A stretch of DNA of 64,000 bases from an uncultured Candidatus Saccharibacteria bacterium. GTDB lineage: Bacteria; Patescibacteriota; Minisyncoccia; Phycocordibacterales; UBA5272. The notes below the pieces were generated by a model that made no database searches, had not been told where the DNA came from, and saw only the letters and a list, made by a program, of their open reading frames with translations. The position numbers and the translations under genes were made by a program. Shown here piece by piece: positions 2,613-54,442 of this stretch (position 1 is the stretch's first letter; each line of letters starts with the position of its first letter). The stretch lies in contig CAYWEW010000004.1 in assembly GCA_964457775.1 (NCBI GenBank), positions 24,705 to 88,704 on the forward strand. The letters are read 5' to 3'.

Positions 2613-2627
2613 AATTGTGATATTTTA

Positions 2628-5634: not shown

Positions 5635-6840
5635 GTGATATATACTACAAAAATGATTTTATACTTCGACAGCTACATTACAGATATACCCTTAAATGGT
5701 CAACATTCTACAATAAACGATGTTGTTAGATACGGTTGCAAAAACTACGCAATGCCAAAAAAAACTGAGATTGCAAAATACTCATTAGCAAGTTATGCAG
5801 TTTACCCTTGGAGTCATGTACTTATACGCTATGAACTTGATAACAAAGACGAGTACGAATCCTTCGATGCTTTCATTTTAAAATTATTCCCGAAGGCGGT
5901 TATTATGCACGAAAGAAGTGACAGCCAAGCTGATTATAGAAAGTCAGTAGAAATATTGGACACTTTTGATGATGATTGGATTTTCTATTCTCCAAACAAT
6001 GACCACCCAATGATGACGAATGATATATCAACAATAGATAAACTTATAGAAAAAGCAAACACTTACAAAGATAAATATGAATTTATCTCTATTTATTATT
6101 CTCATTTTAGTGAATTTCTAAATATATCAAAAAAGAAAAACCCTTTTAATGCTACTTTTGGAAAAGATACTAGAACATTAGAAGAAGATGACTTAGCAAT
6201 AACCATAGTGCGTAATGATGGTGACAACACTGCTGTTCAAATAGTTAACAAAAATCTCTTTAGACACTGGTTCGACTCTAAAGAATTAGGTGGTGGCAGA
6301 ATTATTAGATCAGAAGATGTTAGAAATTATTTTATTACACATAATCAATTAATTATAAATCCAAAAAAAGAGATTTGTGCTCATTTTGATGGTTACCCTC
6401 ACACAATAACTGCAAGACATGAAATTCTCCCAGAAGAAGTCCCTCCTCTTTTTGTTCCTCTTGGTTTTTTTGAAAATAATATAAAAATAAGATACGGGTA
6501 TGACGCTTATAAAGAAGGTTGGACAAATATAAATCCAACCTTAAAAAACTATAGTTTTAAAGACACAGAAACTGGAACAGACCTCAAATGGACACTTGAT
6601 GATATACCGTTATTTTGGAAAGAAAAAATATCTGAAATAGATGCGAATCCTTATCTAGACAAAAATACCATGCAGAAAGCAAGGGATGAAAATTATGAGC
6701 TGATTAAGAACCCTTGGAGTAACGAGTGGTATTATCTTCGTCAAGCCGCATATTTTATATTGGACATAATATATTACAACCCTAAACAAAAATTCCTTAT
6801 TAAAAAAAGTGAGTGGCTAAAGAATAAATCAAAAAAATAA
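5635..6840 (+). CDS. hypothetical protein (401 aa, soluble) within the polysaccharide island
   Basis: Long ORF with no recognisable motif. Start choice uncertain (second ATG at 5653). Confidence 0.4.
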   Translation: MIYTTKMILYFDSYITDIPLNGQHSTINDVVRYGCKNYAMPKKTEIAKYSLASYAVYPWSHVLIRYELDNKDEYESFDAFILKLFPKAVIMHERSDSQADYRKSVEILDTFDDDWIFYSPNNDHPMMTNDISTIDKLIEKANTYKDKYEFISIYYSHFSEFLNISKKKNPFNATFGKDTRTLEEDDLAITIVRNDGDNTAVQIVNKNLFRHWFDSKELGGGRIIRSEDVRNYFITHNQLIINPKKEICAHFDGYPHTITARHEILPEEVPPLFVPLGFFENNIKIRYGYDAYKEGWTNINPTLKNYSFKDTETGTDLKWTLDDIPLFWKEKISEIDANPYLDKNTMQKARDENYELIKNPWSNEWYYLRQAAYFILDIIYYNPKQKFLIKKSEWLKNKSKK

Positions 6841-6842
6841 GT

Positions 6843-8429
6843 TTATTTTTTTATACTTAATCTTTTTAACAGCAAAGAAGAAAAGCGTTCTACGTCATTC
6901 CAATCTTCTTGCTCAAAAAATCCAAAAAATTTATATATAACAATATAAAGAATAAAAGATATACCTCCTGCTATAAGAAGTGTAAATAGGTTAGAAATAA
7001 TATGTGAAACAAAAATATTATTAATTATTCCGACCAAACAACTTGTAACAATAGTTCCAGAAATTATTTTTATATAATATTTTTTTCTATTTAATAGATC
7101 TAAGTATCTAGTTTCAACATAATAAAATAGGTAAAAAATAGGGAGCACAGAAATAAGATATGCCCACGCTGCTCCCTTTATTCCAAAAAAAGGTAATAAT
7201 ACTACAAGTGCTACAACATTTAATAAAGCCATACCAACAGAAGATATTGTTAAAAATTTAAGTTTACCTAAACCTAAAAGAAAACTAGAGAGTGGTACAA
7301 AAAGTGCCAAAATAAAATTAGTTAAAGCCAAAATAACTAAAACGCTTGAAGACCTTTCAGCAAAATCTAAACTAAGCCAATATTGCAAAACCTGATAAGA
7401 AAAAGAAATTGTTGTTATGGTTAATGCCCCTGCAATTATAGTAATTAAACGAAATGTCCTAACATACATAGTCTTCATTCTTAATATTTCGTCACTTCCA
7501 GTAAACTGAGAGGTAAGTGGTAGCATGCCAACACTTAGTGCACCTGAAATACCAGGTATTCTTGTTGCCACATTCCCCGGCATACTATAGTAGGTCAAAT
7601 TACTTGGCCCTGCAAAAAATGGAATTATTAATTTATCCAATGAACTAAGTGATGTGCTGGCAAAATTATTTATGAATGCAACAATTCCAAATCTGTAGCA
7701 CTTAATTATTTCTTCTTTATACCAACGCAACTTAAATGTTGCTATCGGTAAAATGTTTTTTGCATTATAAAAAACAATCAGTGAAAAAATGGCAGTAATT
7801 AATAGTTGAGTAATAAAAATTTCTAATAAAGACCCCCCCAACTTAACAACAAGCAACATACCTAAACTAGAAAGTGTGGTTGATGCAATACTTATTTTAT
7901 TTATAATATCAAATCTCTGTATTGCTTGTAATATTATGTTATATGTCGAAGTTATTGTTGCGAAAAAAATGGCACCGCCAGAAAATATAAAGAGTTTTGA
8001 ATATTTTTCATATTCTGAAAAAGATGCAGGTAAAAAAGAAGTCCCTATTAAAGTAATACTCAATGAAACTAAAAGATAAAATGAACCTAATATAAAAAAT
8101 AGCAAATTAGCTGAATGTATCAAACGTATCATTGCTCCCTCATCCTTCTTCCCGAAATAAAATGAAAGATCTTTAAGTACTGCTAGTGACAAACCAAATT
8201 CCAGCAAACCTAGTAAACCCATTGATGTACTTATAAACAAATAGATACCGTATTCTTTCACCCCTAATGTGAATATAATTATGGGTGTTACTAATAAAGT
8301 AAAAATAATAGGCCAGAGATGCCCGACAATACTATATGAACTATTTTTAAAAGCTTTGTATGTAAGTGATTCTTTTTCCATTTTAGTCCTTTTTATTATA
8401 CTATCATGATAATACAGAACAGTCTTCAC
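6843..8429 (-). CDS. oligosaccharide flippase (Wzx/MOP superfamily)
   Basis: Twelve or more predicted TM segments and Wzx-like composition. Start may be an internal Met. Confidence 0.65.
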   Translation of the reverse strand: MKTVLYYHDSIIKRTKMEKESLTYKAFKNSSYSIVGHLWPIIFTLLVTPIIIFTLGVKEYGIYLFISTSMGLLGLLEFGLSLAVLKDLSFYFGKKDEGAMIRLIHSANLLFFILGSFYLLVSLSITLIGTSFLPASFSEYEKYSKLFIFSGGAIFFATITSTYNIILQAIQRFDIINKISIASTTLSSLGMLLVVKLGGSLLEIFITQLLITAIFSLIVFYNAKNILPIATFKLRWYKEEIIKCYRFGIVAFINNFASTSLSSLDKLIIPFFAGPSNLTYYSMPGNVATRIPGISGALSVGMLPLTSQFTGSDEILRMKTMYVRTFRLITIIAGALTITTISFSYQVLQYWLSLDFAERSSSVLVILALTNFILALFVPLSSFLLGLGKLKFLTISSVGMALLNVVALVVLLPFFGIKGAAWAYLISVLPIFYLFYYVETRYLDLLNRKKYYIKIISGTIVTSCLVGIINNIFVSHIISNLFTLLIAGGISFILYIVIYKFFGFFEQEDWNDVERFSSLLLKRLSIKK

Positions 8430-8456
8430 ATTTCTAAAATGTTATACTAAATAAAA

Positions 8457-9230
8457 ATGAAATTTACTGTTATAACTCCAACTTACAAAAGAGCAAATAA
8501 ACTGGTTAGAGCTGTTAATTCGGTACTTAGCCAAACATACACTGATTGGGAAATGATAATTGTAAATGATTCCCCGCATGATAATACATATCAAGGTTTT
8601 GCCTCATCAATCAATGACTCACGTATTCACTACCACATAAATGATACAAATCGTGGAGTAAATTATTCTAGAAATTTTGCTATGGACAAAGCATCTTCTG
8701 GTAGTGATTGGACTATATTTTTGGATGACGATGATTACTTAGCGCCTGATTCACTACAAACCTTCCATGATCTTATTTTGCTACATAGTGGAAAAAAGTG
8801 GTTCATCACAAATCGTGCATATGTAGATGGGAAACCAGTCACTCAATTTCCTGCCCCAGAAGCTGAATATTCTTATATATGGGACTGCTTAATTCTTAAG
8901 AGAGGAAAGGGTGATGTGACTCATTGTATAGAAACAAAATTACTCACAACAAACCATATTAGATATTCTAGACATATAAAACAAGCCGAGGAGTGGATCT
9001 TTTACTATCAAATTTCACTTTTAGAAAAATTATTTTATCATGACCACAATAGTACAATTACGGATGGTTATGATATAGAAAATGGTCTCAACTTTAGAAA
9101 AAGAACTCGGGAGGAGCAATTTAACACTCTTATGAAATTTGTACACGAAGGTCAACATTTAAAACTAATTGGGCGTCCAACGTTTATTTTGTACTTATTT
9201 ATGAGATTAATTAGATTATTAATAAAATAA
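8457..9230 (+). CDS. family 2 glycosyltransferase
   Basis: FTVITPTYKRANKLVRAVNSVLSQTYTDWEMIIVNDSP and FLDDDDYLAPD (DxD). Confidence 0.75.
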   Translation: MKFTVITPTYKRANKLVRAVNSVLSQTYTDWEMIIVNDSPHDNTYQGFASSINDSRIHYHINDTNRGVNYSRNFAMDKASSGSDWTIFLDDDDYLAPDSLQTFHDLILLHSGKKWFITNRAYVDGKPVTQFPAPEAEYSYIWDCLILKRGKGDVTHCIETKLLTTNHIRYSRHIKQAEEWIFYYQISLLEKLFYHDHNSTITDGYDIENGLNFRKRTREEQFNTLMKFVHEGQHLKLIGRPTFILYLFMRLIRLLIK

Positions 9231-9231
9231 G

Positions 9232-10158
9232 CTATATTTTATTATTAACAATATCTTCAATATAATTCTTAATGCTTTTTTTAGCCTTCCAACCTAGTTC
9301 GCGCTTTGCTCTAGAAACATCCACAACTGTATTCATTCTATTACCTTTACGTTCTGGCAACATAACGATTTCTAATCCGAACATTTTTGCTATTTCAAGA
9401 ATACTAAATCCTTCTTCAGCTCCAAGTCCGTAATCATCCCCTTCTCCTTTTTCCCCAACAAGAACAAGGCCTTTAACAATATCATCTATATGGGTAAAAT
9501 TTCTAACTTGTAGTCCTGGACTTACCACATTTATAGATTTTTTATTTTTAAAATTCTCTTTAAAAATACCAATAACTGTTGCATACGATCCCTTTGAAAT
9601 TTCTCTTGGTCCATATACATTATAAAAATAAGTAATTGCATATTTGAGCCCAAACCACTGACTGTAATTACGAACAAGTTCTGTATTACTTGCTTTTGTC
9701 CACGCATACGGACTTTGATCACGACCAATACCGCCATCAGCAAATTTAGTACTTGAACCAGCATAAATAAGTTTTACATTATTTATTCGACAAAACTCGA
9801 GCACTGCGAATGTTCCATTTTTATTATAGTCCCAAACTATATCCAAATCATCAAAACTTTTTTCTACTCGAGAATATTCACCTAAATGAAAAATAATGTC
9901 TGGGATTTTAGTAACATGTTTTTTAATGTTTTTTGTGTGTCCTTTTATATACGTTGCCCCTTTTATGTGATTTTCTTCTTTTCCAGTAAAATAATTATCT
10001 AATGAATAAACATCATATGAAACATCTTTAACAAGAGCTTCAATTAAGTGGGAGCCTATAAATCCAGCACCGCCTGTAACTAGTACTATTTTTTTGTTTG
10101 TTTTTGGGGATTTAGTCATGTAAGTATTCATAATACAATAAATAGATAATGAATACAA
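9232..10158 (-). CDS. NAD-dependent epimerase/dehydratase (extended SDR)
   Basis: VLVTGGAGFIGSHL Rossmann motif. Start probably the internal Met before TKSPK. Confidence 0.65.
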   Translation of the reverse strand: MYSLSIYCIMNTYMTKSPKTNKKIVLVTGGAGFIGSHLIEALVKDVSYDVYSLDNYFTGKEENHIKGATYIKGHTKNIKKHVTKIPDIIFHLGEYSRVEKSFDDLDIVWDYNKNGTFAVLEFCRINNVKLIYAGSSTKFADGGIGRDQSPYAWTKASNTELVRNYSQWFGLKYAITYFYNVYGPREISKGSYATVIGIFKENFKNKKSINVVSPGLQVRNFTHIDDIVKGLVLVGEKGEGDDYGLGAEEGFSILEIAKMFGLEIVMLPERKGNRMNTVVDVSRAKRELGWKAKKSIKNYIEDIVNNKI

Positions 10159-10171
10159 AATTTAACTTACT

Positions 10172-11113
10172 TTATTTATTACTAAAAAATTTCTTATAAT
10201 ATTCTGCTGTTTTCATTAATCCATCTTTAAGGCTAGTTTTTTTATCCCAACCTAAACTCTTTATTTTTGTACTATCAAGCGCGTGTTCCCTGGTCTCTGA
10301 AGCGTGTGACATTTCCACAATTTCAACACCTCCTTCATATCCAGCCACTTCACATATACTTTGCGCAACTTCATAAATAGTATGCTGTTGACCACCTATG
10401 CAATATATATCGCCTGGAGTTGCTTTTTCTTGCAAAAGCAACATTGCATCAATTAGGTCATCTATATAAATAAACTCTCTCAAACTATCTTTAAAAGAAG
10501 AGTAGACGACAGGTGCTTTGTTATCATAAACATGGGAAAATGACTTCGGTATTAATCTTGTACTATTTTGGTCACCTGGTCCATAGACATTAACAGTTCT
10601 AAAAATAATTACTGGAACTTTAAAACTTCTAAAATAATCTTGAGCTATAAAATCCTGACAAGCTTTTGCTGTTTCGTAAGTATTGCCAGGTAAAAAATGT
10701 GTTTCTTCATTGTATGGTGGTTCGGATCTTCCATATACTTTGTACGATGTACTTATAATAACCTTTTGAACTTTTACCTTGGAAATTCTAACTGCCTCAA
10801 GTAACGACGTTACTCCATAAACTGTATTTAGATACGAGGTTCTTGGATTTTTTGTATATTCAGAAACAATTGCCTCTCCGGCCAAATGATATATGTGAGT
10901 AACTTGGTGAGTTTGAAGAATATAAACCAAAAGTTCTACATTATTTATGTCCCCAACAACCGGAATAATTCTCTCTGAATTACCAAGATATTCGAAATTA
11001 TTACTTCTAGAAAGAAGGATGACTTTAGTTCTATCAGAATTAGATAACACTCTTTCAGTTAATGATCTACCTATAAAACCTGAAGCACCTGTTATTAGTA
11101 TAGTATTTGTCAT
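10172..11113 (-). CDS. NAD-dependent epimerase/dehydratase (4,6-dehydratase/reductase-like SDR)
   Basis: ILITGASGFIGRSL, SYKVYG (YxxxK) and C-terminal LGW motif. Start trimmed to MTNTIL. Confidence 0.6.
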   Translation of the reverse strand: MTNTILITGASGFIGRSLTERVLSNSDRTKVILLSRSNNFEYLGNSERIIPVVGDINNVELLVYILQTHQVTHIYHLAGEAIVSEYTKNPRTSYLNTVYGVTSLLEAVRISKVKVQKVIISTSYKVYGRSEPPYNEETHFLPGNTYETAKACQDFIAQDYFRSFKVPVIIFRTVNVYGPGDQNSTRLIPKSFSHVYDNKAPVVYSSFKDSLREFIYIDDLIDAMLLLQEKATPGDIYCIGGQQHTIYEVAQSICEVAGYEGGVEIVEMSHASETREHALDSTKIKSLGWDKKTSLKDGLMKTAEYYKKFFSNK

Positions 11114-17863: not shown

Positions 17864-19771
17864 TTACTCCTCAATCAATTTTCTGAGAATATCTTCCGCC
17901 ACCTCCTTTCTTCTCTTTTCTTCTTCTTTATGTTTAATATTATTTTCTACTGATACCCTTTTAACTTCTTCTTGTTTCTTGTTTATTGAATCATCACTCT
18001 TATCCTTAACCTCTTCTTTTATTGGAGAATTTTCACTCAAAGCTTTTGCCAGAGCATCTTTAAGAGACATGGCTGGCTTATCATCAAATTGTGTTGTTTG
18101 TGGAGTTGTTTTTTGTGCAAATGTTTTTGAGTTATTTATCTGATTGTTGGTGTGAGTATGCTTTGAATATGAATTATGAGTGGATTTGTCTACATTTATT
18201 TTAACTTCTGTTTGTATAATTGGTTGAGTAACTTCAATTGCTACTGGCTTTATTTCTTGTTTAATAACCTCAACCACTTCTGGTTTCTTTTCAATTTCTA
18301 TCTTTTTTACATCATCATATCTTTTTAAATTATTATCAAATCTCTTAAGATTATCACTACGTTTTGGTGGGTAAGGATTATCGTTTTTATATTCATTAAC
18401 TTTCAAAAACTTTCCATCAGGCAAAGCCGTTTCTACTTTTGGTTTATCAACTTTTGGAACTGGTTTGTAGAATTCTGCAACCTCATCTTCAACCATAAAC
18501 TTTGGTTTTGCGTATGTTGTACGTGAAAAATTTATCACCGCTTGCATGTGCGACTGAACAGGTTTTTGTATTGGTGGAAGTGTCTTAGCAGAAAATGGTT
18601 TTGACCCCTGTCCATCAATCATAAGTCGTATATAAATTTGATAAGCTGACAGATTAACAAAATCATCTAGTATAAAAAATGGCGCGAATTCTTTCTCAAA
18701 TACTTCAGCGTCTGTAGCTCCAACACGAAATGTAATCATTGTTCCCACGTTTCCAAACACCGCAGCCTTAACATCATCGGTCATCTGCTCTATATATTGA
18801 TGTGCGACAGTAAGTGCAAGTTTATATTTTCTTGCCTCTGAAAGAATACTTGCGAATGATTCATTGGCAAAGTTTTGAAATTCATCCACATAAAAATAGC
18901 ACGGAGGTAATTTTTCTTGAGTAGTTAAATCGACATCTGCTCGTGACATTGCAGCCAAGTATATTTTAGTTATCAAAAGTGACCCGAGTAAATTAGCGTT
19001 CCCTTCTCCCACTTTTCCTTTAGAAAGATTCACAATAAAAATCTTCTTCTCGTCCATCATTTTACGTGCATCAAATGATGTCTTCTTTTGTCCAATAATA
19101 TTTCTAATTAATGGATTAGAAATAAACTGACCGATTTTATTTTGAATTGATGGTGCAAGTTCTTGTGCCGTTTTATCCGTATAATTTGCATATTCATTTA
19201 CCCAAAAATCTTTTACGGTTGGGTCAGTTACATTAGAAACAATAAATTTTCGATACTCTTTATCAAACAACATTCTGTTTACACCAAGAAGAGTTTGTCC
19301 GTCATTCTCCAGGAGGGCAAGGATAATATTATTAAGCACATACTCCATACGAGCAGAAAATGTTCCTTTACCGTCACCATCAGTAAATATTTTCTTAAAT
19401 GCTGACATCATACCGTTTGCAAGAAGATATCTTTTTTCTGCTGGAACTTTTTCTAACATATTAAGACCCATCGGAAACTCACCATCAAATGGCGCAAAAT
19501 AAACAACATCCTTAATACGTGACTCTGGAATATGGTCGAGCAACTTTTCAGCAAGTGAACCATGTGGATCAATAACGAAAACACCTTCACCGTTATTTAT
19601 ATCTTGTATAACTAAGTTTTCAATAAGAACAGATTTACCCATACCGGACTTACCAATGATATAAGAATGCTTTGTTCTATCTATTTCTTTGATACCAAAT
19701 GTAAGCTGTTTATTACGATAATCAATTTTGCCTATATAGGTAACTTTTTGTGATGGACGATCGTCTGACAT
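17864..19771 (-). CDS. DUF87/HerA-FtsK superfamily P-loop ATPase, TraG/VirD4-like, with Lys/Glu-rich low-complexity C-terminus
   Basis: HSYIIGKSGMGKSVLI..GVFVIDPHGS Walker A context. Conserved LTVAHQY...FGNVGTMITFRVG. Confidence 0.5.
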   Translation of the reverse strand: MSDDRPSQKVTYIGKIDYRNKQLTFGIKEIDRTKHSYIIGKSGMGKSVLIENLVIQDINNGEGVFVIDPHGSLAEKLLDHIPESRIKDVVYFAPFDGEFPMGLNMLEKVPAEKRYLLANGMMSAFKKIFTDGDGKGTFSARMEYVLNNIILALLENDGQTLLGVNRMLFDKEYRKFIVSNVTDPTVKDFWVNEYANYTDKTAQELAPSIQNKIGQFISNPLIRNIIGQKKTSFDARKMMDEKKIFIVNLSKGKVGEGNANLLGSLLITKIYLAAMSRADVDLTTQEKLPPCYFYVDEFQNFANESFASILSEARKYKLALTVAHQYIEQMTDDVKAAVFGNVGTMITFRVGATDAEVFEKEFAPFFILDDFVNLSAYQIYIRLMIDGQGSKPFSAKTLPPIQKPVQSHMQAVINFSRTTYAKPKFMVEDEVAEFYKPVPKVDKPKVETALPDGKFLKVNEYKNDNPYPPKRSDNLKRFDNNLKRYDDVKKIEIEKKPEVVEVIKQEIKPVAIEVTQPIIQTEVKINVDKSTHNSYSKHTHTNNQINNSKTFAQKTTPQTTQFDDKPAMSLKDALAKALSENSPIKEEVKDKSDDSINKKQEEVKRVSVENNIKHKEEEKRRKEVAEDILRKLIEE

Positions 19772-25940: not shown

Positions 25941-26068
25941 TTTTATTGCTGTGCGCGAACCAAGATTCGGTCACCTCGTCTCGTTTCAAGATTACTTGAA
26001 ACAGGAGACTCCTCGACCCCTATTCGAATCTTGATGGAAATGACGCAGGTCATTTCCTGTTCGCGCAC
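25941..26068 (-). repeat. tRNA-trailing structured element, copy B (downstream of tRNA-Ile)
   Basis: The acceptor strands GCGCGAA/TTCGCGC are identical to tRNA-Ile. H1 hairpin GGAAATGAC-CTGC-GTCATTTCC. P1 CAAGATTCG/CGAATCTTG encloses AATAGGGGTCGAGGAG and a TTTCAAG-taat-CTTGAAA hairpin. Confidence 0.55.
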
Positions 26069-26113
26069 AGAATACAAAAAGCTAAGGATACTTCCTTAGC
26101 TTTTTGTATTCTG

Positions 26114-26186
26114 TGCGCGAACCAAGATTCGAACTTGGGACCGCTCGAGTATCAGTCGAGTGCTCTACCAGCTGAGCTATTCGCGC
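26114..26186 (-). tRNA. tRNA-Ile (anticodon GAT)
   Basis: Manual fold. Acceptor GCGCGAA/TTCGCGC, D-arm GCTC-AGCTGGTA-GAGC, anticodon loop CTGATAC, T-arm CCAAG-TTCGAAT-CTTGG, discriminator A. Confidence 0.8.
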
Positions 26187-26850: not shown

Positions 26851-27321
26851 TTACCAAGCAAAATGCGCAAAGGCTTTGTTAGACTCTGCCATTCTATGTG
26901 TATCTTCCTTCTTCTTCACAGCACTTCCTTCGTTATTTGCTGCAGCCATAAGCTCATCAGCTAACTTAAGACGCATTGCCTTTCCTTTCTTTGCATTAGC
27001 TGCATCAAGAATCCAACGTAATGCGAGCATGAAACGACGATCTTCACGAACTTCGCGAGGAACTTGGTAGTTTGCTCCACCGATACGACGTGAACGTACT
27101 TCTGTAACTGGTCCAGCATTACGAAGAGCTGCTTCAAAAGTTTCCATAGGATCCTCGATTTTAAGCTTTTCCTTAATAACATCAAAAGCACCGTACACAA
27201 TATCACGTGCTGTGTTTTTCTTTCCACCCTCCATCACATAGTTAATAAACTTAGATACTTTAAGTGAATTATACTTAGCATCTGGCCCAACCATATTTCG
27301 ATTTTTAACTTTTCTACGCAT
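26851..27321 (-). CDS. rpsG: 30S ribosomal protein S7
   Basis: Full-length match, including [12 protein letters not shown] and [13 protein letters not shown]. Confidence 0.9.
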
Positions 27322-27545
27322 GTATTTAGTTGCCGTTGATCGTTAGGACGTTATTCGTTAGTCGTACAAAATACTTTACCAGTATTACATGTATTCCCTA
27401 ACGAAGAACGAACAACTAAGAACGGGGTTCTTGTGTTTTCCGTTCCCCGAAGCAATGGGTACTTCACAAGTGTTTAATTTCAGTAAGTGCTTCAATACTT
27501 GATAAACAAGTGCTATGTATACTACAACAAAATCACCAAAAAAGC

Positions 27546-27572
27546 AAAAGCTCGACCTTTGGTTGCGCTTTT
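27546..27572 (-). terminator. Rho-independent terminator after the YiiX-like gene
   Basis: AAAAGCTCGACC-ttt-GGTTGCGCTTTT followed by TTTTTTGG on the minus strand. Confidence 0.45.
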
Positions 27573-27573
27573 C

Positions 27574-27598
27574 TTTTACTTCTTTGCTATTACTCCTG
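27574..27598. repeat. 25-nt direct repeat DR1 (copy of the rpsL 3' end)
   Basis: ttttacttctttgctattactcctg matches ttttacttctttgctactgctcctg at 30841-30865 at 23 of 25 positions. Confidence 0.6.
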
Positions 27599-29377
27599 TA
27601 ATGTTGAATACTTCGGACGATTAAGAGTGGTTATAAAATCTTTAACGTCAGCACTGAAGGCTTGTTTTGTTGTTTCACTTGCGTCCAAAAAATACACAAA
27701 TTCTGTCTCTTTTGTCGGAGTATCGAATTCACTCACGAATTTTTCGACAATAGCATTCGGGGTAACAATTGTTCTTCCAGAAATAATCGCCTTCGGGAAA
27801 GTTACTCCGCCATTTTTACTTGTCTTAAAATATGCATCATATACAAGTTCGGAACAATATATTTCATTTTTTGTGTCCAAATCAAATGCATAATCATAAG
27901 GCTGACCATAATGTCCAAAAGCAGTTATTAATGCTTCCAGTTTTTCTTGTTTTGTTAATCTTGTTCTTGTGACCGCAACATAATCCACTGAAGCAGAACT
28001 TTCAACTGACTGAATTAGTGTCCCGTGTGTTTGGCTTTCTACAACCGAAGGAGAAAATCCTTTTTCATCCTTTTCACTCAAAACTTTATAAGCTTTTGGA
28101 TTTTCTGATTGTAGTAACATACTCATAGAAGAATATCCTCGATATGGGAAAACTTCTTCGAAGAAATTATCCATATCTTCTAAACTTCCAGTGTACATAC
28201 CTGCATGTGTCCAAAATCCTGGAATACCCAAGTTACTTGCATACCAATTCTTACGATAGACCATAATATCTCCAGGCTCCATTAACTTTTTCATCTCCTC
28301 GATTTGTTCTATTGTAATAAACTTCGAGGTTCTGTCACCAACATGTATATTACCTATCTTGTCTGTAATTACTGTCTTTTGAATTGGAAGCCACGTCTCA
28401 AATGCTTTTCTATCAAATAAGTTTTTATATACGACACTTCTGTGTGTAATTTGAGAAAATGCATTCTTAAAAATGTAATCATAACTTGTGCGAGAAACCT
28501 CAAGAAGTGACGCGTAGTTTGGTGAAACATATGTACTGTCTTCTGGTACTTTCAACTGATAATAAAGATAACCCAAGTTTCTTCTAAGGAAAGAATTTGA
28601 TGCGAAGAATCTAGCAGTAACATCATCATACAAAAAACCAGCACCTAAAGTGTCACTATATTCATTGAAAATTTTTATAGCAACAGGATTTTCACTAGCC
28701 TTCGAAATCACTTTATGGAAAATTTCAAATTTCTTAATATACAGTGAATAAGCAATGATAAATGACTGTGTGTGAGTTTCTTTGTTGTTAAACATAGAGA
28801 TTTGGTGGAAATACCTATGTCTATCTGTCATTTCTTCGGTCTCTATCGACGCAACAAGAAAAGACTCCCAATCACGCTTAAGTGACAATCCTTCTTCATA
28901 AGAAAGTTCGTTTTTTAAAATACCAGGATTCATTAAAAGCTTTTCTCCTGAAAGAATTAACTTGTCCAAAAGAACGGCAGCAACTTCAACATCTTCTTGT
29001 ACAATTTCTATTTGTTGTTCAGTTGTAAGTGGAGAAAAAACTTCCTTTTCATTTGGTATAACACTAGAAACCACATACCAAATAACAACAATAAATATTA
29101 GTACGGAGATAGCAATCTTGTGTCCTTTGGTAATTTTCTTTGTTGTATTAATGTATTTTTGTAAACTTTTACTAGTCCCATAATTAACAAAAATATTTTT
29201 AATTTTACGATAAACCACGTACAAAATCCCTAATGATATTACAACATGAAGAGGATCGAGTAGTTTTGTTACATAAGCAAATAGTGCAACTATAAGTAAC
29301 AAGACAATCGATATAATATTTATTAATAAACTAAACACACCTACAGATTGCTTGTTACTAGTATTTTTTTGTTTCAT
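27590..29377 (-). CDS. membrane-anchored protein with C-terminal YiiX/DUF830-like permuted papain-fold hydrolase domain
   Basis: N-terminal TM helices. C-terminal PGDIMVYRKN...FWTHAGMY...GQPYDYAFDLDTKNEIYCSELVYDAY (His and Cys motifs). Confidence 0.5.
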   Translation of the reverse strand: MKQKNTSNKQSVGVFSLLINIISIVLLLIVALFAYVTKLLDPLHVVISLGILYVVYRKIKNIFVNYGTSKSLQKYINTTKKITKGHKIAISVLIFIVVIWYVVSSVIPNEKEVFSPLTTEQQIEIVQEDVEVAAVLLDKLILSGEKLLMNPGILKNELSYEEGLSLKRDWESFLVASIETEEMTDRHRYFHQISMFNNKETHTQSFIIAYSLYIKKFEIFHKVISKASENPVAIKIFNEYSDTLGAGFLYDDVTARFFASNSFLRRNLGYLYYQLKVPEDSTYVSPNYASLLEVSRTSYDYIFKNAFSQITHRSVVYKNLFDRKAFETWLPIQKTVITDKIGNIHVGDRTSKFITIEQIEEMKKLMEPGDIMVYRKNWYASNLGIPGFWTHAGMYTGSLEDMDNFFEEVFPYRGYSSMSMLLQSENPKAYKVLSEKDEKGFSPSVVESQTHGTLIQSVESSASVDYVAVTRTRLTKQEKLEALITAFGHYGQPYDYAFDLDTKNEIYCSELVYDAYFKTSKNGGVTFPKAIISGRTIVTPNAIVEKFVSEFDTPTKETEFVYFLDASETTKQAFSADVKDFITTLNRPKYSTLQE

Positions 29378-29445
29378 ATTCTATTAAGTATGTCATTCAT
29401 TACTGACCATTACCATAGAGAAATACACAATTGGAGGGAAATAAC

Positions 29446-30351
29446 CTATTCCTTAAGATTCATAACTACCATCGCATGATCACTTCCAATAATTTCTTCA
29501 TCTAATGGTATATTGCTGTAACATTTTAAATCTTGATTAAGTACCGATACATTATCTATTAAATTAGATATTTCCTTAGATACAACCATGGTGTCAAATG
29601 TAAGTGGATTATTATCATGTATATGCGTCGTTAGATTCCCTTTATAACCGATTAGGACATCTAGTAACACCTTACTCTCTTCATTGCTTGCTTTCAGGAT
29701 ATCAAAACCACTACTATTATTATGTTCATTAAAATCACCGAGTAAAATAATTTCCCTCTTTTCATCGAGAGTCTTATCTGCAAAGGCTCTCAGCCCTCTC
29801 ATCTCCATTAATTTATAAAAAATACACCTAAACTTCGCATCTGTATATATTTGTTGACTAGAATTATAATCTTGTCCTTCCAAAAACATTGGCAGAAAGC
29901 TCTTTAAGTGGAAAGTGACTATTCTTAATTTTTTGCCACGATAACTATCTATATCAATTACAAGAATATCTCTTCTTTGTTTTATAGGTAATAAGTTATT
30001 TGTATCACCAATCTCTTGAATACTTGGTATAAATAAATCACCCAAAGAAACACTTTTGCAAGTAATATTTTGGGTTAGTGATTTTTTATACATAACAGCC
30101 ATACGAATTCCACGACTATTTGGCTTTGCAAAAAAACAATTATACCCAAGTTCTTCACTGATTATTGATACACCTTTTTCTCCTCCAACTTCTTGAAGAC
30201 ATATAATATCTAAGTCTTCTTTTTTAAATATTTCCTTAAAATAAGTAATTCGCTTGTTAAAAAACTCTTCATGGACCACATCTTCTGCCTCATCATCAAT
30301 TCGTGTCCCTGCATCATAAAAGTTCCTAAGATTATACGTCGCTATCTTCAT
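29446..30351 (-). CDS. endonuclease/exonuclease/phosphatase (EEP) family protein
   Basis: ATYNLRN, ICLQEV, LLGDFN and GSDHAMV motifs. Confidence 0.7.
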   Translation of the reverse strand: MKIATYNLRNFYDAGTRIDDEAEDVVHEEFFNKRITYFKEIFKKEDLDIICLQEVGGEKGVSIISEELGYNCFFAKPNSRGIRMAVMYKKSLTQNITCKSVSLGDLFIPSIQEIGDTNNLLPIKQRRDILVIDIDSYRGKKLRIVTFHLKSFLPMFLEGQDYNSSQQIYTDAKFRCIFYKLMEMRGLRAFADKTLDEKREIILLGDFNEHNNSSGFDILKASNEESKVLLDVLIGYKGNLTTHIHDNNPLTFDTMVVSKEISNLIDNVSVLNQDLKCYSNIPLDEEIIGSDHAMVVMNLKE

Positions 30352-30373
30352 ATAGAGAATTGTAACATGGCAA

Positions 30374-30405
30374 CAAAAATGCGCGACACTTGGTCGCGCT
30401 TTTTG
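30374..30405 (-). terminator. Rho-independent terminator (GCGCGAC...GTCGCGC family)
   Basis: GCGCGAC-acttg-GTCGCGC with T-runs on both sides. Confidence 0.55.
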
Positions 30406-30420
30406 AATTTTAGTTTTACT

Positions 30421-30750
30421 TCAAGTTTTGAGAGGGGTTACTGGTAAAGAGTAACGAACAACATCGACTCTTCTTCCAACTATTATTCTGTGGTTAATCT
30501 CCTTGCAAAGTTTACCTTCCTTATGTAGTTGCTCAAGGGCCATTCTTACATTTTTATCAGAAATATCTCTCCTGCCAGATGTTCTTTCCTTAATTATTTC
30601 AGCAATTTCAGGAACAGTAAACTTTCCATCTGGTGAGAAAAAACGAAGGAGCTCTTCGTAATTTTGATTATTTTCAAAGCCTACCCTTGTTAAATACGCA
30701 TTAATCAAAAGAGCAAAAACAACCAAAAAAACAATGCCGAGCCAATGCAT
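30421..30750 (-). CDS. membrane-anchored winged-helix (PadR/BlaI-like) protein
   Basis: N-terminal TM segment. ...SDKNVRMALEQLHKEGKL wing-helix pattern. Confidence 0.4.
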   Translation of the reverse strand: MHWLGIVFLVVFALLINAYLTRVGFENNQNYEELLRFFSPDGKFTVPEIAEIIKERTSGRRDISDKNVRMALEQLHKEGKLCKEINHRIIVGRRVDVVRYSLPVTPLKT

Positions 30751-30811
30751 GATAATTTCCTTTTTTAGAAAGATCTACAATTAAACTATATTAAAAAATA
30801 AATAAATGCAA

Positions 30812-30840
30812 GAAAAAACATCGCTTTCGCGATGTTTTTG
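30812..30840 (-). terminator. Rho-independent terminator directly after rpsL
   Basis: AACATCGC-gaaa-GCGATGTT followed by TTTTTCTT on the minus strand. Confidence 0.55.
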
Positions 30841-30865
30841 TTTTACTTCTTTGCTACTGCTCCTG
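30841..30865. repeat. 25-nt direct repeat DR2 (native rpsL 3' end)
   Basis: Covers the last rpsL codons (AGAVAKK-stop) and 2 nt beyond. Confidence 0.6.
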
Positions 30866-31274
30866 CCTTTGGACGCTTTGCTCCGTAGAGTGAGCGTGCT
30901 TGACGACGCTTATCAACTGGAGTTGCATCCAATCGTCCGCGAACGATGTGATAACGTACACCGGCCAAGTCCTTCACACGTCCACCACGGAGGATTACCA
31001 CTGAGTGCTCCTGCAGCTTGTGTCCTTCTCCTGGGATATATGCTGTTACTTCCATACCATTAGTAAGACGTACACGAGCAATTTTACGGAGAGCTGAGTT
31101 CGGCTTCTTTGGTGTTGTCGTTGTAACTTTTATACATACACCACGCTTGAAAGGTGAATCATAAAAATTAGGCTTGTTCTGAATTGCATTGAATCCACGA
31201 GTCATAGCAATAGAACGTGATTTCTTCACTGTTGTAGAGCGGGACTTCTTTACGAGTTGATTGATTGTTGGCAT
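30843..31274 (-). CDS. rpsL: 30S ribosomal protein S12
   Basis: MPTINQL..., [16 protein letters not shown] and GGRVKDLPGVRY-like segment. Confidence 0.9.
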
Positions 31275-31880: not shown

Positions 31881-32510
31881 CTACATCAATATAGTTCTTA
31901 CTAAATTAAATATATGTGGCATAAACATACCATAAATCATTGATGCTCCGATAATCGCTCCAATCATATAAATTGGATTATAAATTATACCTGAATTTAT
32001 ACGCATTCTTGGGAAAAGTGATTGTATGATTGCCATTCCATCAAACGGTGGGATTGGAATGAGATTAAAGAAAGCTAGTGAAACGTTTATTTTTATAATA
32101 GTAAACAATGCAGTTCCAACACCTATACTCAAACTCCCATAATTAGCCATAACTTTAAAAACAATCCCTGCCATAAATGCTATTAAAAGATTAGTAAGTA
32201 TTCCAGCTGAAGCTACAAAAGCTTCTCCAATCCTTGTTCTTATGTTGTAAGCGTTGTATGGAACAGGTTTTGCCCATCCAAAAAATGTACCAGCCATCAG
32301 AAACGCAAATAACGGCACAATGATAGATCCCATCATATCAATATGAGGGAGAGGGTTTAGTGTTAGACGCCCAGCCCTATTTGCAGTCTCATCTCCTTGT
32401 ATATACGCAGCATAACCGTGTGCAATTTCATGCAAAATAATAGAATATATGATAATAATAAAAGGAAATATTCCTTGTGAAATGGTCATGGCCTCGTTCA
32501 TATGAAACAT
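31881..32510 (-). CDS. M50 family (site-2-protease-like) zinc metalloprotease
   Basis: HEIAHG zinc motif inside a TM helix, downstream FDG. Confidence 0.6.
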   Translation of the reverse strand: MFHMNEAMTISQGIFPFIIIIYSIILHEIAHGYAAYIQGDETANRAGRLTLNPLPHIDMMGSIIVPLFAFLMAGTFFGWAKPVPYNAYNIRTRIGEAFVASAGILTNLLIAFMAGIVFKVMANYGSLSIGVGTALFTIIKINVSLAFFNLIPIPPFDGMAIIQSLFPRMRINSGIIYNPIYMIGAIIGASMIYGMFMPHIFNLVRTILM

Positions 32511-32833: not shown

Positions 32834-32868
32834 CAAAAAACGCGACCTGAGTCGCGTTTAATTATTTT
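32834..32868 (+). terminator. Rho-independent terminator of rpmB
   Basis: AACGCGAC-ctga-GTCGCGTT followed by taattatttt. Confidence 0.55.
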
Positions 32869-36610: not shown

Positions 36611-36642
36611 AAAAGCGCGCTTAAAATCGCGCTTTTGCTTTT
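36611..36642 (+). terminator. Rho-independent terminator (GCGCG-stem family)
   Basis: AAAAGCGCG-cttaaaat-CGCGCTTTTGCTTTT. Confidence 0.55.
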
Positions 36643-37120: not shown

Positions 37121-37152
37121 AAGCGCGACCTACAGTCGCGCTTTTCTTTTTT
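37121..37152 (+). terminator. Rho-independent terminator (AGCGCGACC...GGTCGCGCTTTTC family)
   Basis: AGCGCGACC-taca-GTCGCGCTTTTCTTTT. Confidence 0.6.
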
Positions 37153-37358: not shown

Positions 37359-37388
37359 AGCGCGACCTTTGGTCGCGCTTTTCTTTTT
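37359..37388 (+). terminator. Rho-independent terminator (same family)
   Basis: AGCGCGACC-tttg-GTCGCGCTTTTCTTTTT. Confidence 0.6.
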
Positions 37389-37711: not shown

Positions 37712-37742
37712 AAGCGCGACCGAAGGTCGCGCTTTTCTTTTG
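37712..37742 (+). terminator. Rho-independent terminator (same family)
   Basis: AGCGCGACC-gaag-GTCGCGCTTTTCTTTT. Confidence 0.6.
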
Positions 37743-39368: not shown

Positions 39369-40925
39369 TCAGTAGGAAATTATGTCGGTGAGATTTCCAT
39401 TCTCTCTTGTTGCACGCGTTTCATTATTATATTTTCTTAAAATTAATATCATTAGAATAGAAACGAAAAGATAAATAAAACACATCGTTTTAAATGAAAC
39501 GTTAAGCATAACTGTCGAGTAAGGAAATAATTCTATTGTTCTTGCTACCCATATCATGACCCCAATTAGTACTGAATCTATGTATCCAATAAGTAGTGAT
39601 AATGTGTGTGAAATGTATGAAAAAAATACAACCAAGAATGAGAACAACATCGCAATTGGTACAAATGGAACGACAAGCACATTCGCTATGAGGGCGTACA
39701 CTGACACTGTCCCGAAGGTGTACATAACATAAGGCAATGTCGCGAAGTAGGCAGACAAGGTAGTAATGAAGAGTTCTCTTAAAGAGAGTGGCGACACGTA
39801 AGAGAAATATTTTTGAAATAACAATGTAAGTGGTTCACTCATATACACCAATCCAACCGTTGCGAGAAACGAGAGATGAAGTGATACATCGTGCATGAGC
39901 GCATATGGTTCATACATCACAATTATAAATAACGAAATTATCAAAGCTTGCTTCGCTACATATTGACGACCGACCAACATTGCGAGTAACGCGATGAACG
40001 CCATCAGAGTTGCACGTATAACACTCGGACTACCCCCTACCATAATTACAAAAAGTACTACTGAAATTGAAGCGAACACAATACGCAAAGTAAGTGGAAG
40101 AAACGCGAGTGCAAACAAAATAGAAGCAATTACAATTACTATATTGAAACCAGAAAGAACCACAATGTGAGATAGTCCTGCAGAACGAAATGTCTGAGTT
40201 AATTCTTTGGACATTGATGATGCTCCGAACAACATCCCGCTTGCAAGTGATGACGCGGGTGATGAAACATAAGTATCAATTCTTGTAGTTAAATTTTCTT
40301 TCAGACGACCCAACACATCTCTTATAGCATGAGCCTCACTATCAATCCCCTCCACACGGGGGTACATCATTTCACTTCCAATATTTTTGGTCAGTAAGTA
40401 TGAAGCGTAATCAAATCCTTTTTCTTTGATCTCGTTATGAGAATAAATAATTTTTGGAACAGTAACTTTTCCAGAAAGTTTGAGCGTCTCGCCTATTTCA
40501 TATTTTGGATAAAGCGGTGTGCGAACTTCTACCGCAAGTGCTTCAACATCTTTGACAATCGGCTCTACTGAAAAAATTTGATACTCATTTTTTGTCTCTG
40601 GTGATGTAACAATTACAGCATTGAATGTACAACTACTCTCACATACAAAATTATTTTTCTCCTCAACTAATTGTACACGGATGATTCCGATAAATAGTCC
40701 GAGACAAAAAAGTGAAGTGACGAGCGGAAAAGGAAAATGATGAAGGATGTCGAAGATGTCCTTCATCATTTTTCTTTTCCGCTCCCAACCATACAACCCC
40801 AACTGTATCACCCCGAGCACCACTGCTAGCACCCCCACCTCACTTCCATACACAGACATCTCTCCAATCACAATTCCTAACAATGCTCCGACTACGAATA
40901 TAACTGTCTTTGCATGTGTTGTCAT
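39369..40925 (-). CDS. ComEC/Rec2 N-terminal membrane 'Competence' domain protein (split comEC, part 1)
   Basis: SVIRATLMAFIALLAMLVGR...LHLSFLATVGL competence-domain signature. Confidence 0.6.
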   Translation of the reverse strand: MTTHAKTVIFVVGALLGIVIGEMSVYGSEVGVLAVVLGVIQLGLYGWERKRKMMKDIFDILHHFPFPLVTSLFCLGLFIGIIRVQLVEEKNNFVCESSCTFNAVIVTSPETKNEYQIFSVEPIVKDVEALAVEVRTPLYPKYEIGETLKLSGKVTVPKIIYSHNEIKEKGFDYASYLLTKNIGSEMMYPRVEGIDSEAHAIRDVLGRLKENLTTRIDTYVSSPASSLASGMLFGASSMSKELTQTFRSAGLSHIVVLSGFNIVIVIASILFALAFLPLTLRIVFASISVVLFVIMVGGSPSVIRATLMAFIALLAMLVGRQYVAKQALIISLFIIVMYEPYALMHDVSLHLSFLATVGLVYMSEPLTLLFQKYFSYVSPLSLRELFITTLSAYFATLPYVMYTFGTVSVYALIANVLVVPFVPIAMLFSFLVVFFSYISHTLSLLIGYIDSVLIGVMIWVARTIELFPYSTVMLNVSFKTMCFIYLFVSILMILILRKYNNETRATRENGNLTDIISY

Positions 40926-44252: not shown

Positions 44253-46028
44253 TTAAATAACCTTAAACCCTATTTCTTTTAAATATTCAAAAGTAGAATT
44301 ATAAAAATCAGGATTTCGTGTTGGATCATTTTTATCACCATCAGGTATAACAATTACCATTCCTTGTCTTGCTCTAGTTAAAAGAACTCTGTAAGCATTT
44401 TTAAGATAGTTTTGTCGTTCTAACTTTCTGATATGATTCCAACGACTACCAACAAATGACCAATGTTCCCAACCATTATTGGTATATCTAAAATCTGCAT
44501 CCCAAATTACACAAGACCAATCTAGTTCAAGACCTTGAACATGAAACTCTGTTGCAACATCTTCGAGGTAATAAGATGAACGTACATCATCCTTTCCATC
44601 TAAAAACCAATGAATTGGATCAACTGGAGATTTAACATCTATAGCATATGGTTTTAATCTTTCTGCTTGAGAAGAAACCATAATTCCGTAACGTTCCGAA
44701 CCCCTCGCCTGCTCTTTTAACCATTGTTTCGCTTTGGAAACATCTCGAGTAATAACCATTGGGTATTTATTTTTTATATTATTTAAAGTATCTTGTGCGT
44801 CATTTAATTTAATATCAAGCAATTGTTTAAAAAGTAGAGAGACGTGCTCAGCACGAAATGAACGCATAGAAACATCAAGATGTAACTCATCTCTAGTTAC
44901 AACTAGAGGGTTATATTTTAATTCATCCAATACTTTTCCAGCTCCATACTCACTATCAGTTAGTCTAGAAGAAATATAAATATGCCAATCTGGAAAAGAT
45001 CTATTCATGGACTCAATCCATTCACTAATACCAGCTTCTCCGGTATTAATCTCTTGACCCCCACCAACAAGACAAACAACAACGGCCCAATCTTGATGTC
45101 TATCTAAACACGATATAAGAAACTCGGGTTCTGATTGTTTAAAATTAGGCATACCCTTTTTCCTATGCATAAAATTTACTGTTTGTTGTAAATCCCATGC
45201 ACGTTGTGATTCATCAAATAATACAACGTGCTCAATTGGTGGTTTTTCAAAATCAACCAAACATTCATCACGAAAATTATGAACGTTCTGAATAAACATT
45301 TTAACATTACTCATTACTTCTCCTTTTTTAATTTTATGACCTCGTTCCTTTTCATGTCTAACCTTATCTCGTGTTAGTGCTTCACGTAAGATTGCAACAA
45401 GTGGTCCATTACCAGAAAGAAAAACACTATACAAATCATTATCTTTATCTATATGTTTAGTTGCAATATTTAGTCCGACTAATGTTTTACCAGCACCTGG
45501 TACACCAGTAACAAAACAAATTGATTTATGTGATTTATTTTTAGATAAATTTATTATTTCTGAAACTGTTTCTGATGTTTTAGTTAAATTAACTGCGCCA
45601 GCATCACTACGAGATATGTTAACCACCGAATGACCATTGTACAAAGACATCGCCGCTTCAATGATTGTTGGTGTAGGGCAATACCTACCCATCTCCCATT
45701 GTTTTATATCAATATCTTTATCCTCAACAAATATTAAAATATTATTTATTGCTTGATTAAGTAATTCACTGTTACACATCACAGGAATAAGCAGCTTATC
45801 GTTTTGTAATGTAGTAGAAACAACAGTAACAGCACTCTTTGATTTAGTAGCTATTAGTACTGGAGCAATATAATGTTCATGACTTGACTCATGAAAGTTT
45901 TTTAAATCTAAAGCATAATCCCAAACTTGATCTATAGATGATGATAAAAATTCTTTATCGCCAACTTTAAATTCAAGTACAAATACTACTGGTCCAATAA
46001 GTAATACAACATCAATTCTTTTTGCCAT
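44253..46028 (-). CDS. DUF2075-type protein: PD-(D/E)xK-like N-terminus plus SF1-helicase-like ATPase
   Basis: IDVVLL...VLEFK (D...ExK), [34 protein letters not shown]. Possible frameshift at the 5' end (see findings). Confidence 0.55.
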
Positions 46029-46679: not shown

Positions 46680-46712
46680 ACAAAAACGCGCCAACCTTAG
46701 CGCGTTTGTAAT
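46680..46712 (-). terminator. Rho-independent terminator
   Basis: AACGCGC-taaggttg-GCGCGTT followed by TTTTGTTTTG on the minus strand. Confidence 0.55.
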
Positions 46713-54174: not shown

Positions 54175-54245
54175 AGCGGTGTTGGTTTAGTGGTAGAATG
54201 CCTGCCTTCCAAGCAGGAGACAAGAGTTCGATTCTCTTACGCCGC
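54175..54245 (+). tRNA. tRNA-Gly (anticodon TCC)
   Basis: Manual fold. Acceptor GCGGTGT/ACGCCGC, anticodon loop CTTCCAA, T-arm AAGAG-TTCGATT-CTCTT. Confidence 0.75.
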
Positions 54246-54442
54246 ACAGAAATATAAAATCCTGAAACAAATTGTTTCAGGATTTTATATTTCTGTGCGG
54301 CGTAAGCAAGACAACTGCTTGTCTTGCATAGAGAATCGAATAGGGGTCGAGGAGCCATTTGTTTCTTGTAATCAAGAAACTGGCGAGGTGACCGATTCTC
54401 TTGAAGACTTATTTGTCGGTTTTTCCCGAGGTCGCGACTAGG
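54246..54442 (+). repeat. tRNA-trailing structured element, copy E (after tRNA-Gly-TCC)
   Basis: 30-bp inverted repeat regenerating the tRNA 3' end. H1 GCAAGACAA-CTGC-TTGTCTTGC. P1 AGAGAATCG/CGATTCTCT encloses AATAGGGGTCGAGGAG and TTTCTTG-taat-CAAGAAA. TTTGTCGGTTTTTCCCGAGGTCGCGAC. Confidence 0.55.

Follow-up and report, generated by a model that had tools for sequence, protein, structure and literature searches.

The adjacency of rpsL and rpsG, which encode the ribosomal proteins S12 and S7, is among the most stable in bacteria. How did three other genes come to lie between them in an uncultured Candidatus Saccharibacteria bacterium? The locus was analyzed in a stretch of 64 kb of contig CAYWEW010000004.1, called the window throughout. 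Here rpsL and rpsG are 3521 nucleotides (nt) apart, every gene of the region lies on the minus strand, and the gene order is rpsL-wHTH-EEP-C92-rpsG, where wHTH stands for the winged-helix-like pattern of a protein of 109 amino acids (aa). Three hairpins and a separate promoter-like site for rpsG are located between the two ribosomal genes as well, and the end of rpsL is repeated at the far end of the inserted genes. We refer to the inserted genes and their signals as the islet. We consider it probable, though well short of certain, that the spacer is an old hotspot of gene turnover without mobile machinery and that the repeat is a young recombination scar. Features of this kind are known, and the locus adds an example at an unexpected position. 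The features from rpsL to rpsG are as follows.

30843-31274, minus strand: rpsL (S12, 143 aa; Pfam PF00164, E=6e-36), left core-gene boundary of the islet
30836-30865, minus strand: repeat copy A, last rpsL codons, stop codon and A-rich tail (CAGGAGCAGTAGCAAAGAAGTAAAACAAAA)
30814-30839, minus strand: hairpin T1, predicted terminator after rpsL and copy A (-15.8 kcal/mol, z -4.6), also present in L003 and L175-177
30421-30750, minus strand: 109-aa protein with an N-terminal membrane helix and a winged-helix-like pattern
30413-30422, minus strand: partial third copy of the rpsL tail (GAAGTAAAAC), overlapping the TGA stop of the 109-aa gene just upstream of T2
30375-30404, minus strand: hairpin T2 (AAAAAGCGCGACC..GTCGCGC; -16 kcal/mol), between the 109-aa gene and EEP
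30359-30367, minus strand: extended -10-like box TGTTACAAT ahead of EEP
29446-30351, minus strand: EEP-family hydrolase (301 aa; PF03372, E=6e-11, 42.9 bits against a cut-off of 24.5)
29387-29395, minus strand: box TGACATACT ahead of C92
27590-29377, minus strand: C92 membrane protein (595 aa): three helices at the N terminus, then a helical domain, and a permuted-papain C92/YiiX domain at the C terminus
27569-27598, minus strand: repeat copy B (CAGGAGTAATAGCAAAGAAGTAAAAGAAAA), native C92 end, rpsL-derived middle and generic terminator tail
27546-27572, minus strand: hairpin T3, following C92 and copy B; degenerate, with two stem mismatches (-12.1 kcal/mol, z -1.4)
27519-27547, minus strand: rpsG promoter-like site (TTGCTT-N17-TAGTAT), conserved in all islet-clade loci in the alignment
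27430-27514, minus strand: rpsG leader of 85 nt with the core CTTGTGRAGTACC..GGGGAAC..ACACARG
27325-27420, minus strand: long hairpin directly upstream of the rpsG ATG (-30.4 kcal/mol, z -3.9)
26851-27321, minus strand: rpsG (S7, 156 aa; Pfam PF00177, E=5e-57), right core-gene boundary of the islet

A preliminary description of this DNA, made from the sequence alone, had placed about 3.5 kb between rpsL and rpsG and had noted the absence of fusA and tuf downstream of rpsG. Both statements hold: the two ribosomal genes are confirmed by Pfam, and a 122-aa membrane protein, tRNA-Ile and MurB follow rpsG in that order, with neither fusA nor tuf found downstream of rpsG or among the 41 window open reading frames (ORFs) scanned. 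The window thus departs from the canonical str operon (rpsL-rpsG-fusA-tuf), whose genes are adjacent and co-transcribed, with fusA next in line.

Distribution and variability of the islet

For comparison, at least 160 loci were collected with S12 as query from species-representative genomes and metagenomes; S12 was at most 81% identical to that of the window in all of them. Among the matches listed, 150 of the 160 loci hold both rpsL and rpsG, and the gap is 0-478 nt in 149 of these, with a single exception at 1302 nt. The order M50 peptidase-rpsL-rpsG is kept in relatives from the candidate phyla radiation (CPR). The exceptional locus, L144, belongs to an unrelated lineage (S12 62% identical); its 1.3 kb gap (1570-2885), the only other split of the 150, contains two opposite-strand ORFs of 185 and 132 aa. 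None of the matches listed in the S12 genome and metagenome scans belonged to the islet clade, and all islet-clade loci were recovered by exact-protein look-ups of C92 and EEP homologues.

The islet clade belongs to the Paceibacteria, tiny CPR bacteria with reduced genomes. Six other lineages of this clade were obtained, with S12 89-97% and S7 85-95% identical to the window proteins. Five of them have rpsL and rpsG split by 1.2-5.3 kb, and the contig of the sixth, L181, ends within the islet after rpsL and an islet gene:

L183: rpsL-EEP-rpsG; the closest outgroup, with the same downstream synteny as far as MurB
L169: rpsL-EEP-p133-C92-DUF5684-rpsG-p196-fusA
L167: rpsL-PG_binding-EEP-DUF5684-C92-rpsG
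L178: rpsL-C92-EEP-p363-rpsG
L185: rpsL-EEP-four small ORFs-rpsG-p195-fusA
L181: rpsL-C92-(contig end)

The constant gene of the islet is EEP, present in five of the six other lineages down to 51% protein identity. It stands directly behind rpsL in L169, L183 and L185, is separated from rpsL by one gene in the window and in L167, and comes after C92 in L178. The C92 gene occurs in some lineages only and at variable positions, and among the loci fetched the 109-aa gene was seen in this strain only. Because the pair is split in all six related lineages, and EEP is present in five of these, the insertion must be old, and the single recent three-gene insertion proposed in the preliminary description did not survive the comparison. 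Nor do the three genes form one unit: EEP stands alone in L183, C92 alone in L175 and L003, and EEP occurs without C92 in L006. That relatives would uniformly carry the same three genes without repeats had been named as the finding that would speak against a recent insertion; this applies in part, as the split is ancestral in the clade but the same three genes are not kept. The whole clade shares the split, and the periphery of the islet varies. Altogether, the same pair of core genes encloses differing accessory content, as expected of a hotspot, in seven lineages and four near-species alleles.

Near relatives of the window were available as four short contigs with ~87-95% nucleotide identity to it; the S12 protein of the window is identical in L003, L005 and L175. 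In L003 and L175-177, rpsL and T1 are followed by an apparent remnant of the region upstream of the 109-aa gene, then by C92, 16 unrelated nt and the rpsG promoter. This looks like the window arrangement minus the 109-aa gene, T2, EEP, copy B and T3. The contig L006 contains EEP and a remnant of the EEP-C92 spacer, apparently up to the ATG of C92, directly followed by the rpsG promoter, and here the C92 ORF and T3 look to have been lost. In L005, the rpsL tail leads through one repeat directly into a T3-type hairpin, the promoter and the rpsG leader. This relative has one repeat copy only and the structure of an unoccupied site; judged from its junction, L005 has exactly the form expected of a product of recombination between the repeat copies, or equally of a site that was never occupied. 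Up to the junction L005 and L003 are 97.7% identical over 1129 nt, so that presence and absence of the islet vary at about the species level. The alleles of the near relatives are consistent with simple deletions.

On the rpsG side of the spacer, the leader is highly conserved. Within the clade, the promoter-like site has the form TTGCNN-N17-TAGTAT, and promoter and leader were also found in L005, L006, L167, L169, L175, L178, L183 and L185. The core motif of the leader occurs in 13 of 185 loci, all of them from the islet clade and all upstream of rpsG. A helix, CTTGTG..GT.CCC/GGG..AC..CACARG, is predicted for the leader, with two covarying pairs in eight sequences. No Rfam family matched the leader; searches of the whole window (gathering thresholds) and of 24-34 kb (E-value mode) gave tRNAs only. 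We regard the leader as a candidate S7 autoregulatory RNA. A hairpin also precedes rpsG in L167, L169, L175, L178, L183 and L185, with unrelated sequence in each lineage, and in L175 a stem-loop of 124 nt is inserted inside the leader. With these predicted elements, rpsL and rpsG appear to be independent transcription units, which would explain why the gap tolerates cargo.

The duplicated rpsL tail and the hairpins

The 25-mer at 30841-30865 recurs at 27574-27598 with two mismatches; a third site with up to three mismatches is absent from the 64 kb, and no such match was obtained in 100 shuffles. The reported duplication of the rpsL tail at the far end of the insert (23 of 25 identities) is therefore real, with two sites only in the window, and it extends to 30 nt (27569-27598 versus 30836-30865, 27 of 30 identities). 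Copy B is not the clean rpsL copy it had been taken for, however, but a composite. It opens with 9 nt of native C92 gene end (CAGGAGTAA) and closes with ~12 nt (GTAAAAGAAAAG) that overlap the tail of a terminator hairpin generic to the clade; what derives uniquely from rpsL is the middle only, TAGCAAAGAAG (~10-12 nt), which joins both flanks in register and without gaps.

The C92 protein ends alike (...STLQE*) in L167 and L175, both without copy B, where this end is encoded by CAGGAATAG and CAGGAGTAG, respectively. The native ending in these two loci, CAGGA(G/A)TAG, is the microhomology at the joint. In L175 an identical C92 end is followed by unrelated sequence. According to the preliminary description, the second copy supplies the stop codon and 3' untranslated region of C92. 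The stop does lie inside copy B, but it is native and was not donated by the repeat, since L167 and L175 stop at the same place.

When copy B was compared with possible sources, 31 of 33 positions agreed with the junction of rpsL tail and hairpin in L005, 28 of 33 with copy A of the window, and only 9-13 of 33 with the rpsL tails of the outgroups L183, L169 and L167. Copy B also carries synonymous codon choices specific to the window group. The close match to L005, set against the poor one to the outgroups, indicates that copy B is far younger than the residence of EEP at this site and came from a window-group allele. Its source looks like an islet-free allele.

The 10-mer GAAGTAAAAC occurs exactly twice in the window, in the rpsL tail (30840-30849) and at 30413-30422, with 0.23 occurrences expected, and as a 10-nt direct repeat it encloses the insert of T1 and the 109-aa gene. 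A longer decayed rpsL fragment behind C92 in L167 was considered as well and dropped, as there was a 17-nt tail match only (p=0.04).

Most islet genes are followed by hairpins resembling short intrinsic terminators; in the window EEP and C92 are joined without one. A terminator hairpin had been described behind each repeat copy. This is clear for T1, whereas T3 is present but degenerate. T2 is a clade-conserved terminator located after rpsL and before EEP, with orthologous hairpins in L169, L183 and L185, where the rpsL tail directly precedes it. T3 belongs to a clade-generic family, GCGCGAC..GTCGCGC followed by TTTTCTTTT. Members of the form (A)AGCGCGACC-loop-GGTCGCGCT, again followed by TTTTCTTTT, were found in the window at 37121-37143, 37359-37379 and 37712-37734 and also in L169, L183 and L185; the family was not found in eight islet-free CPR loci. 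T2 and T3 (81% similar) were tried as paralogous copies left by the original insertion, and this was abandoned because the same hairpin recurs elsewhere in the window, at 37121, 37359 and 37712, and in the relatives.

Related hairpins are present in the window at 32838-32859, 36611-36636 and 46684-46707. The generic hairpin at 37.1-37.7 kb brackets two small genes of ~51 aa and ~83 aa; a box, ATG(T/C)TAGGATA(T/C)GATTAT, is repeated ahead of each, and by eye the ~83-aa product resembles an XRE-type HTH protein. In L167, a direct repeat of 88 nt with 97% identity (4901-4988 and 6278-6365) encloses the PG_binding_1 gene between rpsL and EEP. This repeat is the stem of the rpsL terminator, with a loop carrying a structured expansion of ~60 nt.

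Origin of the islet

We looked for genes that could have moved the islet. No integrase or transposase was found in the islet cargo (Pfam) or in 33 further window ORFs, and no recombinase was called in the islets of L167, L169, L178, L183 and L185. The sole recombinase-type gene seen was an IS3-type transposase in L178, outside the islet. Terminal inverted repeats are absent from the islet boundaries, and the flanking repeats vary in length from event to event (10, 30 and 88 nt), which argues against a transposase. The islet hence shows none of the marks of a transposon or insertion sequence (transposase, terminal inverted repeats, fixed-length duplication).

The course of events that we favour starts with the EEP gene, which would have settled directly behind rpsL long ago. 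Once rpsG had acquired a promoter of its own and a structured leader, rpsL and rpsG would have become separate transcription units, and therefore the space between them would tolerate extra genes. Each extra gene would be a self-contained module of promoter-like box, ORF and often a terminator hairpin, and homologous and microhomology-mediated recombination may add, remove and rearrange such modules. Homology arms for DNA taken up via the ComEC pathway are probably provided by the highly conserved rpsL and rpsG; uptake is plausible because ComEC is encoded in the window (39369-40925). The 30-nt repeat would have formed when the C92 3' end (..CAGGAGTAG) was joined at the CAGGAG/TAG microhomology to an L005-like allele. 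The segment joined to C92 would be the 'rpsL tail, terminator, rpsG promoter' part of an islet-free allele, and the other crossover would lie in the conserved flank; equivalently, the islet may have recombined into an L005-like allele. The repeat in its present form would allow precise loss of the entire islet.

Homology-facilitated illegitimate recombination during natural transformation is known from Acinetobacter and Streptococcus pneumoniae. The junctions seen here resemble it: one would lie in long homology (rpsG plus leader, or rpsL) and the other at a microhomology of 6-9 nt (CAGGAG/TAG), with ComEC encoded in the window. To our knowledge the process has never been demonstrated in CPR bacteria, and here it is deduced from junction sequences only. 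The term itself occurs in PMC6382021.

Hotspots without mobile elements, located between recombining core genes, have been described (Oliveira, Touchon and Rocha 2017, PMC5635113). Like those, the islet has a fixed core-gene pair and variable content in close relatives, integrases or transposases were not found in it, and its alleles are explicable by recombination in the flanks. Unlike those, it is located within an operon and not between operons, in a highly conserved gene pair; its constant core gene, EEP, long predates the variable part, and the islet brings a new promoter and leader for the downstream ribosomal gene. Interruption of an ancient ribosomal protein gene cluster by accessory genes also has a parallel in Gammaproteobacteria, where multigene insertions lie between concatenated translation operons and are reported to separate whole operons (Brandis, Cao and Hughes 2019, PMC6735719); in the window the break falls inside the str operon, behind rpsL, its first gene, and ahead of rpsG, its second. 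The locus indicates that even rpsL and rpsG can uncouple once the downstream gene has its own promoter and leader. Its full, partial and empty alleles form a natural series for gene gain and loss in genomes without obvious mobile elements. It offers three leads: an EEP hydrolase kept behind rpsL, a C92/YiiX enzyme family that is bound to the membrane and restricted to these bacteria, and a candidate S7-responsive leader RNA.

Several points weigh against this account of the islet. The sample comprises seven lineages, the 30-nt form of copy B was seen in this strain only, and the L005 contig, 1.3 kb long, ends before rpsG. Promoters and terminators are consensus-level predictions, and transformation in these organisms is deduced from the presence of ComEC only. 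The same product may have arisen by insertion into an empty site, by replacement within an allele that already bore an islet, or by an older duplication whose copies gene conversion kept alike. Finally, the recurrence of direct repeats of 10, 30 and 88 nt could point to a more specific duplicative mechanism.

A rival origin would be site-specific integration. The islet would then be the remnant of an integrative element whose attP mimics the rpsL 3' end and which was integrated by a tyrosine or serine recombinase. Copy A and T1 would be the rebuilt end of rpsL, copy B and T3 the displaced original end; the recombinase would have been lost later or acted in trans, and L005 would be the unoccupied or excised attB. 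Streptococcal integrative elements target the 3' ends of ribosomal protein genes such as rplL, rpsI and rpmG. As in integrative elements at the 3' ends of conserved genes (tRNA, tmRNA, ribosomal), which leave a partial gene copy as attR, the direct repeats overlap the end of a conserved target gene, the displaced copy retains its native downstream flank (31 of 33 against L005), and an exact empty site exists in a relative, again L005. Unlike such elements, the islet yielded no recombinase; the 33 further window ORFs and the six other islet versions yielded none either, and the cargo is not gained or lost as a unit: its genes move separately, with EEP ancestral at the site, and the repeat is young, postdating most of the cargo. 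In copy B, moreover, the leftmost 9 nt are C92's own coding sequence. Nor is there a compositional anomaly (GC 0.28-0.35 in the islet versus 0.32-0.40 in its neighbours), and the repeats differ in length between events. Of the usual features of an integrative element, the direct repeats at a gene end and the unoccupied site in a relative are present, and we consider this origin unlikely.

The islet could instead be an integron-like cassette platform, in which generic hairpins act as recombination sites and cassettes loop out and re-enter at other hairpins. This would yield direct repeats of terminators around inserts together with a shuffled gene order. Inserts bracketed by repeats do recur, in the window (30 and 10 nt), in L167 (88 nt, 97%) and in L169 (T2 versus T3, p<0.0005); gene order differs between lineages, the same hairpin encloses the two small genes at 37.1-37.7 kb, and the hairpin family is clade-specific. 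However, neither an integron integrase nor another dedicated recombinase was found, and a scan of 41 window ORFs and of related loci revealed no intI integrase with attI and common promoter. The hairpins have the short GC stems and T tracts of ordinary intrinsic terminators, and no attC-like architecture was seen in them; the cassettes have promoter-like boxes of their own, unlike classical integron cassettes, and the EEP-C92 junction of the window has no hairpin. Few loci were sampled, and generic recombination between repeats accounts for these observations as well. That such a platform operates here is quite unlikely in our view. The same low chance is given to its stricter form, in which the spacer is dedicated to cassette capture and the hairpin plus A-rich rpsL tail is a portable recombination site used without an integrase. 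If true, this would be integron-like gain, loss and reordering of genes beside a highly expressed core gene.

Very unlikely is mere coincidence, i.e. that the native C92 end (CAGGAGTAG) happens to resemble rpsL codons and that a generic terminator (GTAAAAGAAAAG plus hairpin) stands behind both genes. The CAGGA(G/A)TAG ending of C92 in relatives without copy B fits this idea, as do an element at 37359-37379 nearly identical to T3 plus GTAAAAGAAAAG and an enrichment of tail-like 17-mers in the window (8 observed versus 1.1 expected). It does not account for the middle segment TAGCAAAGAAG, identical to rpsL and in gapless register with both flanks, nor for the restriction of the 25-mer (up to three mismatches) to two sites, with 0 of 100 shuffles matching. 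The 31 of 33 match to L005 includes synonymous positions of the window group, and in L175 the sequence behind the same C92 end is unrelated. Misassembly is excluded for practical purposes, although short repeats could in principle mislead the assembler of a metagenome-assembled contig into a chimeric join. The contigs L001, L002 and L004 are independent assemblies of three sequencing runs and match the window at 100% identity, with both repeats spanned by L001; the repeats moreover are just 30 nt long with 3 mismatches, and the same kind of split is seen in six other lineages.

Cargo proteins and other features of the window

The labels EEP and YiiX/C92 given to two of the cargo proteins in the preliminary description proved right, whereas the PadR/BlaI label of the 109-aa protein could not be established. 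This protein had no Pfam match above threshold, and a weak PadR signal was obtained for 3 of 11 family members (E=0.003 at best). A word-indexed search returned the protein itself only; full HMMER searches revealed a family of 12 representatives of 92-128 aa plus two longer multi-domain proteins, the best being 52% identical over the full length. Its AlphaFold single-sequence model is unreliable, with a predicted local distance difference test score (pLDDT) of 48.5.

The EEP protein has homologues in 125 clusters of ~300 aa. Its catalytic residues N7, E54, D206, N208, D291 and H292 are invariant in 38 homologues. Matches in the PDB were ExoIII-like and weak, and the protein is a distant relative of exonuclease III-type enzymes.

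The C92 protein passes the gathering threshold of Peptidase_C92 and has the permuted papain fold with the conserved Cys and His. Compared to YiiX/YaeF (Pfam C92; PDB 2if6), it is ~400 residues longer and has three membrane helices, its helical domain is without a specific structural match, and its distant homologues adjoin PLD-like genes. Such homologues away from rpsL were seen in L172 (48% identity; region 7477-10788) and L173 (35% identity; regions 2339-3814 and 9001-10809). In L172 the homologue is directly beside a PLD-type (PLDc_2) gene, with an ABC-transporter gene ~1.5 kb off; in L173, PLD-type and ABC-transporter genes are located 3.5-5 kb from it. These neighbourhoods give hints of a role of C92 in lipid or envelope metabolism.

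PDB sequence searches with the single cargo proteins gave nothing useful, PADLOC had no match for the three of them, and PHROGs yielded one weak match only (E=0.004), between the N-terminal membrane region of C92 and a family of unknown function. An extended -10-like box stands 7-15 nt ahead of the ATG in each cargo gene, and the boxes TGnTACAAT and TG(A/T)CATACT are conserved before EEP and C92 in L167, L169, L178, L183 and L185. The short distance from box to ATG suggests that the EEP and C92 mRNAs are leaderless or nearly so.

Upstream of rpsL, two further genes of the region complete the locus:

31881-32510, minus strand: M50 peptidase
between the M50 peptidase and rpsL in gene order, minus strand: 175-aa protein

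One relative is labelled Gracilibacteria, and reading of UGA as a sense codon was therefore considered; it was rejected, since TGA terminates 7 of 52 ORFs, ComEC among them, and under table 11 the conserved genes read through without interruption. Far from the islet, the window encodes a homologue of VirD4/TrwB-like coupling proteins (635 aa, 17864-19771) and a Schlafen-type helicase (591 aa, 44253-46028). Perfect inverted repeats of 30 and 34 bp are located at 26059-26122 and 54236-54306. They begin within the 3' ends of tRNA-Ile (26113-26186, minus strand) and tRNA-Gly (54176-54247, plus strand), and the motif GCACAGAA.TA.AAAA is common to both.

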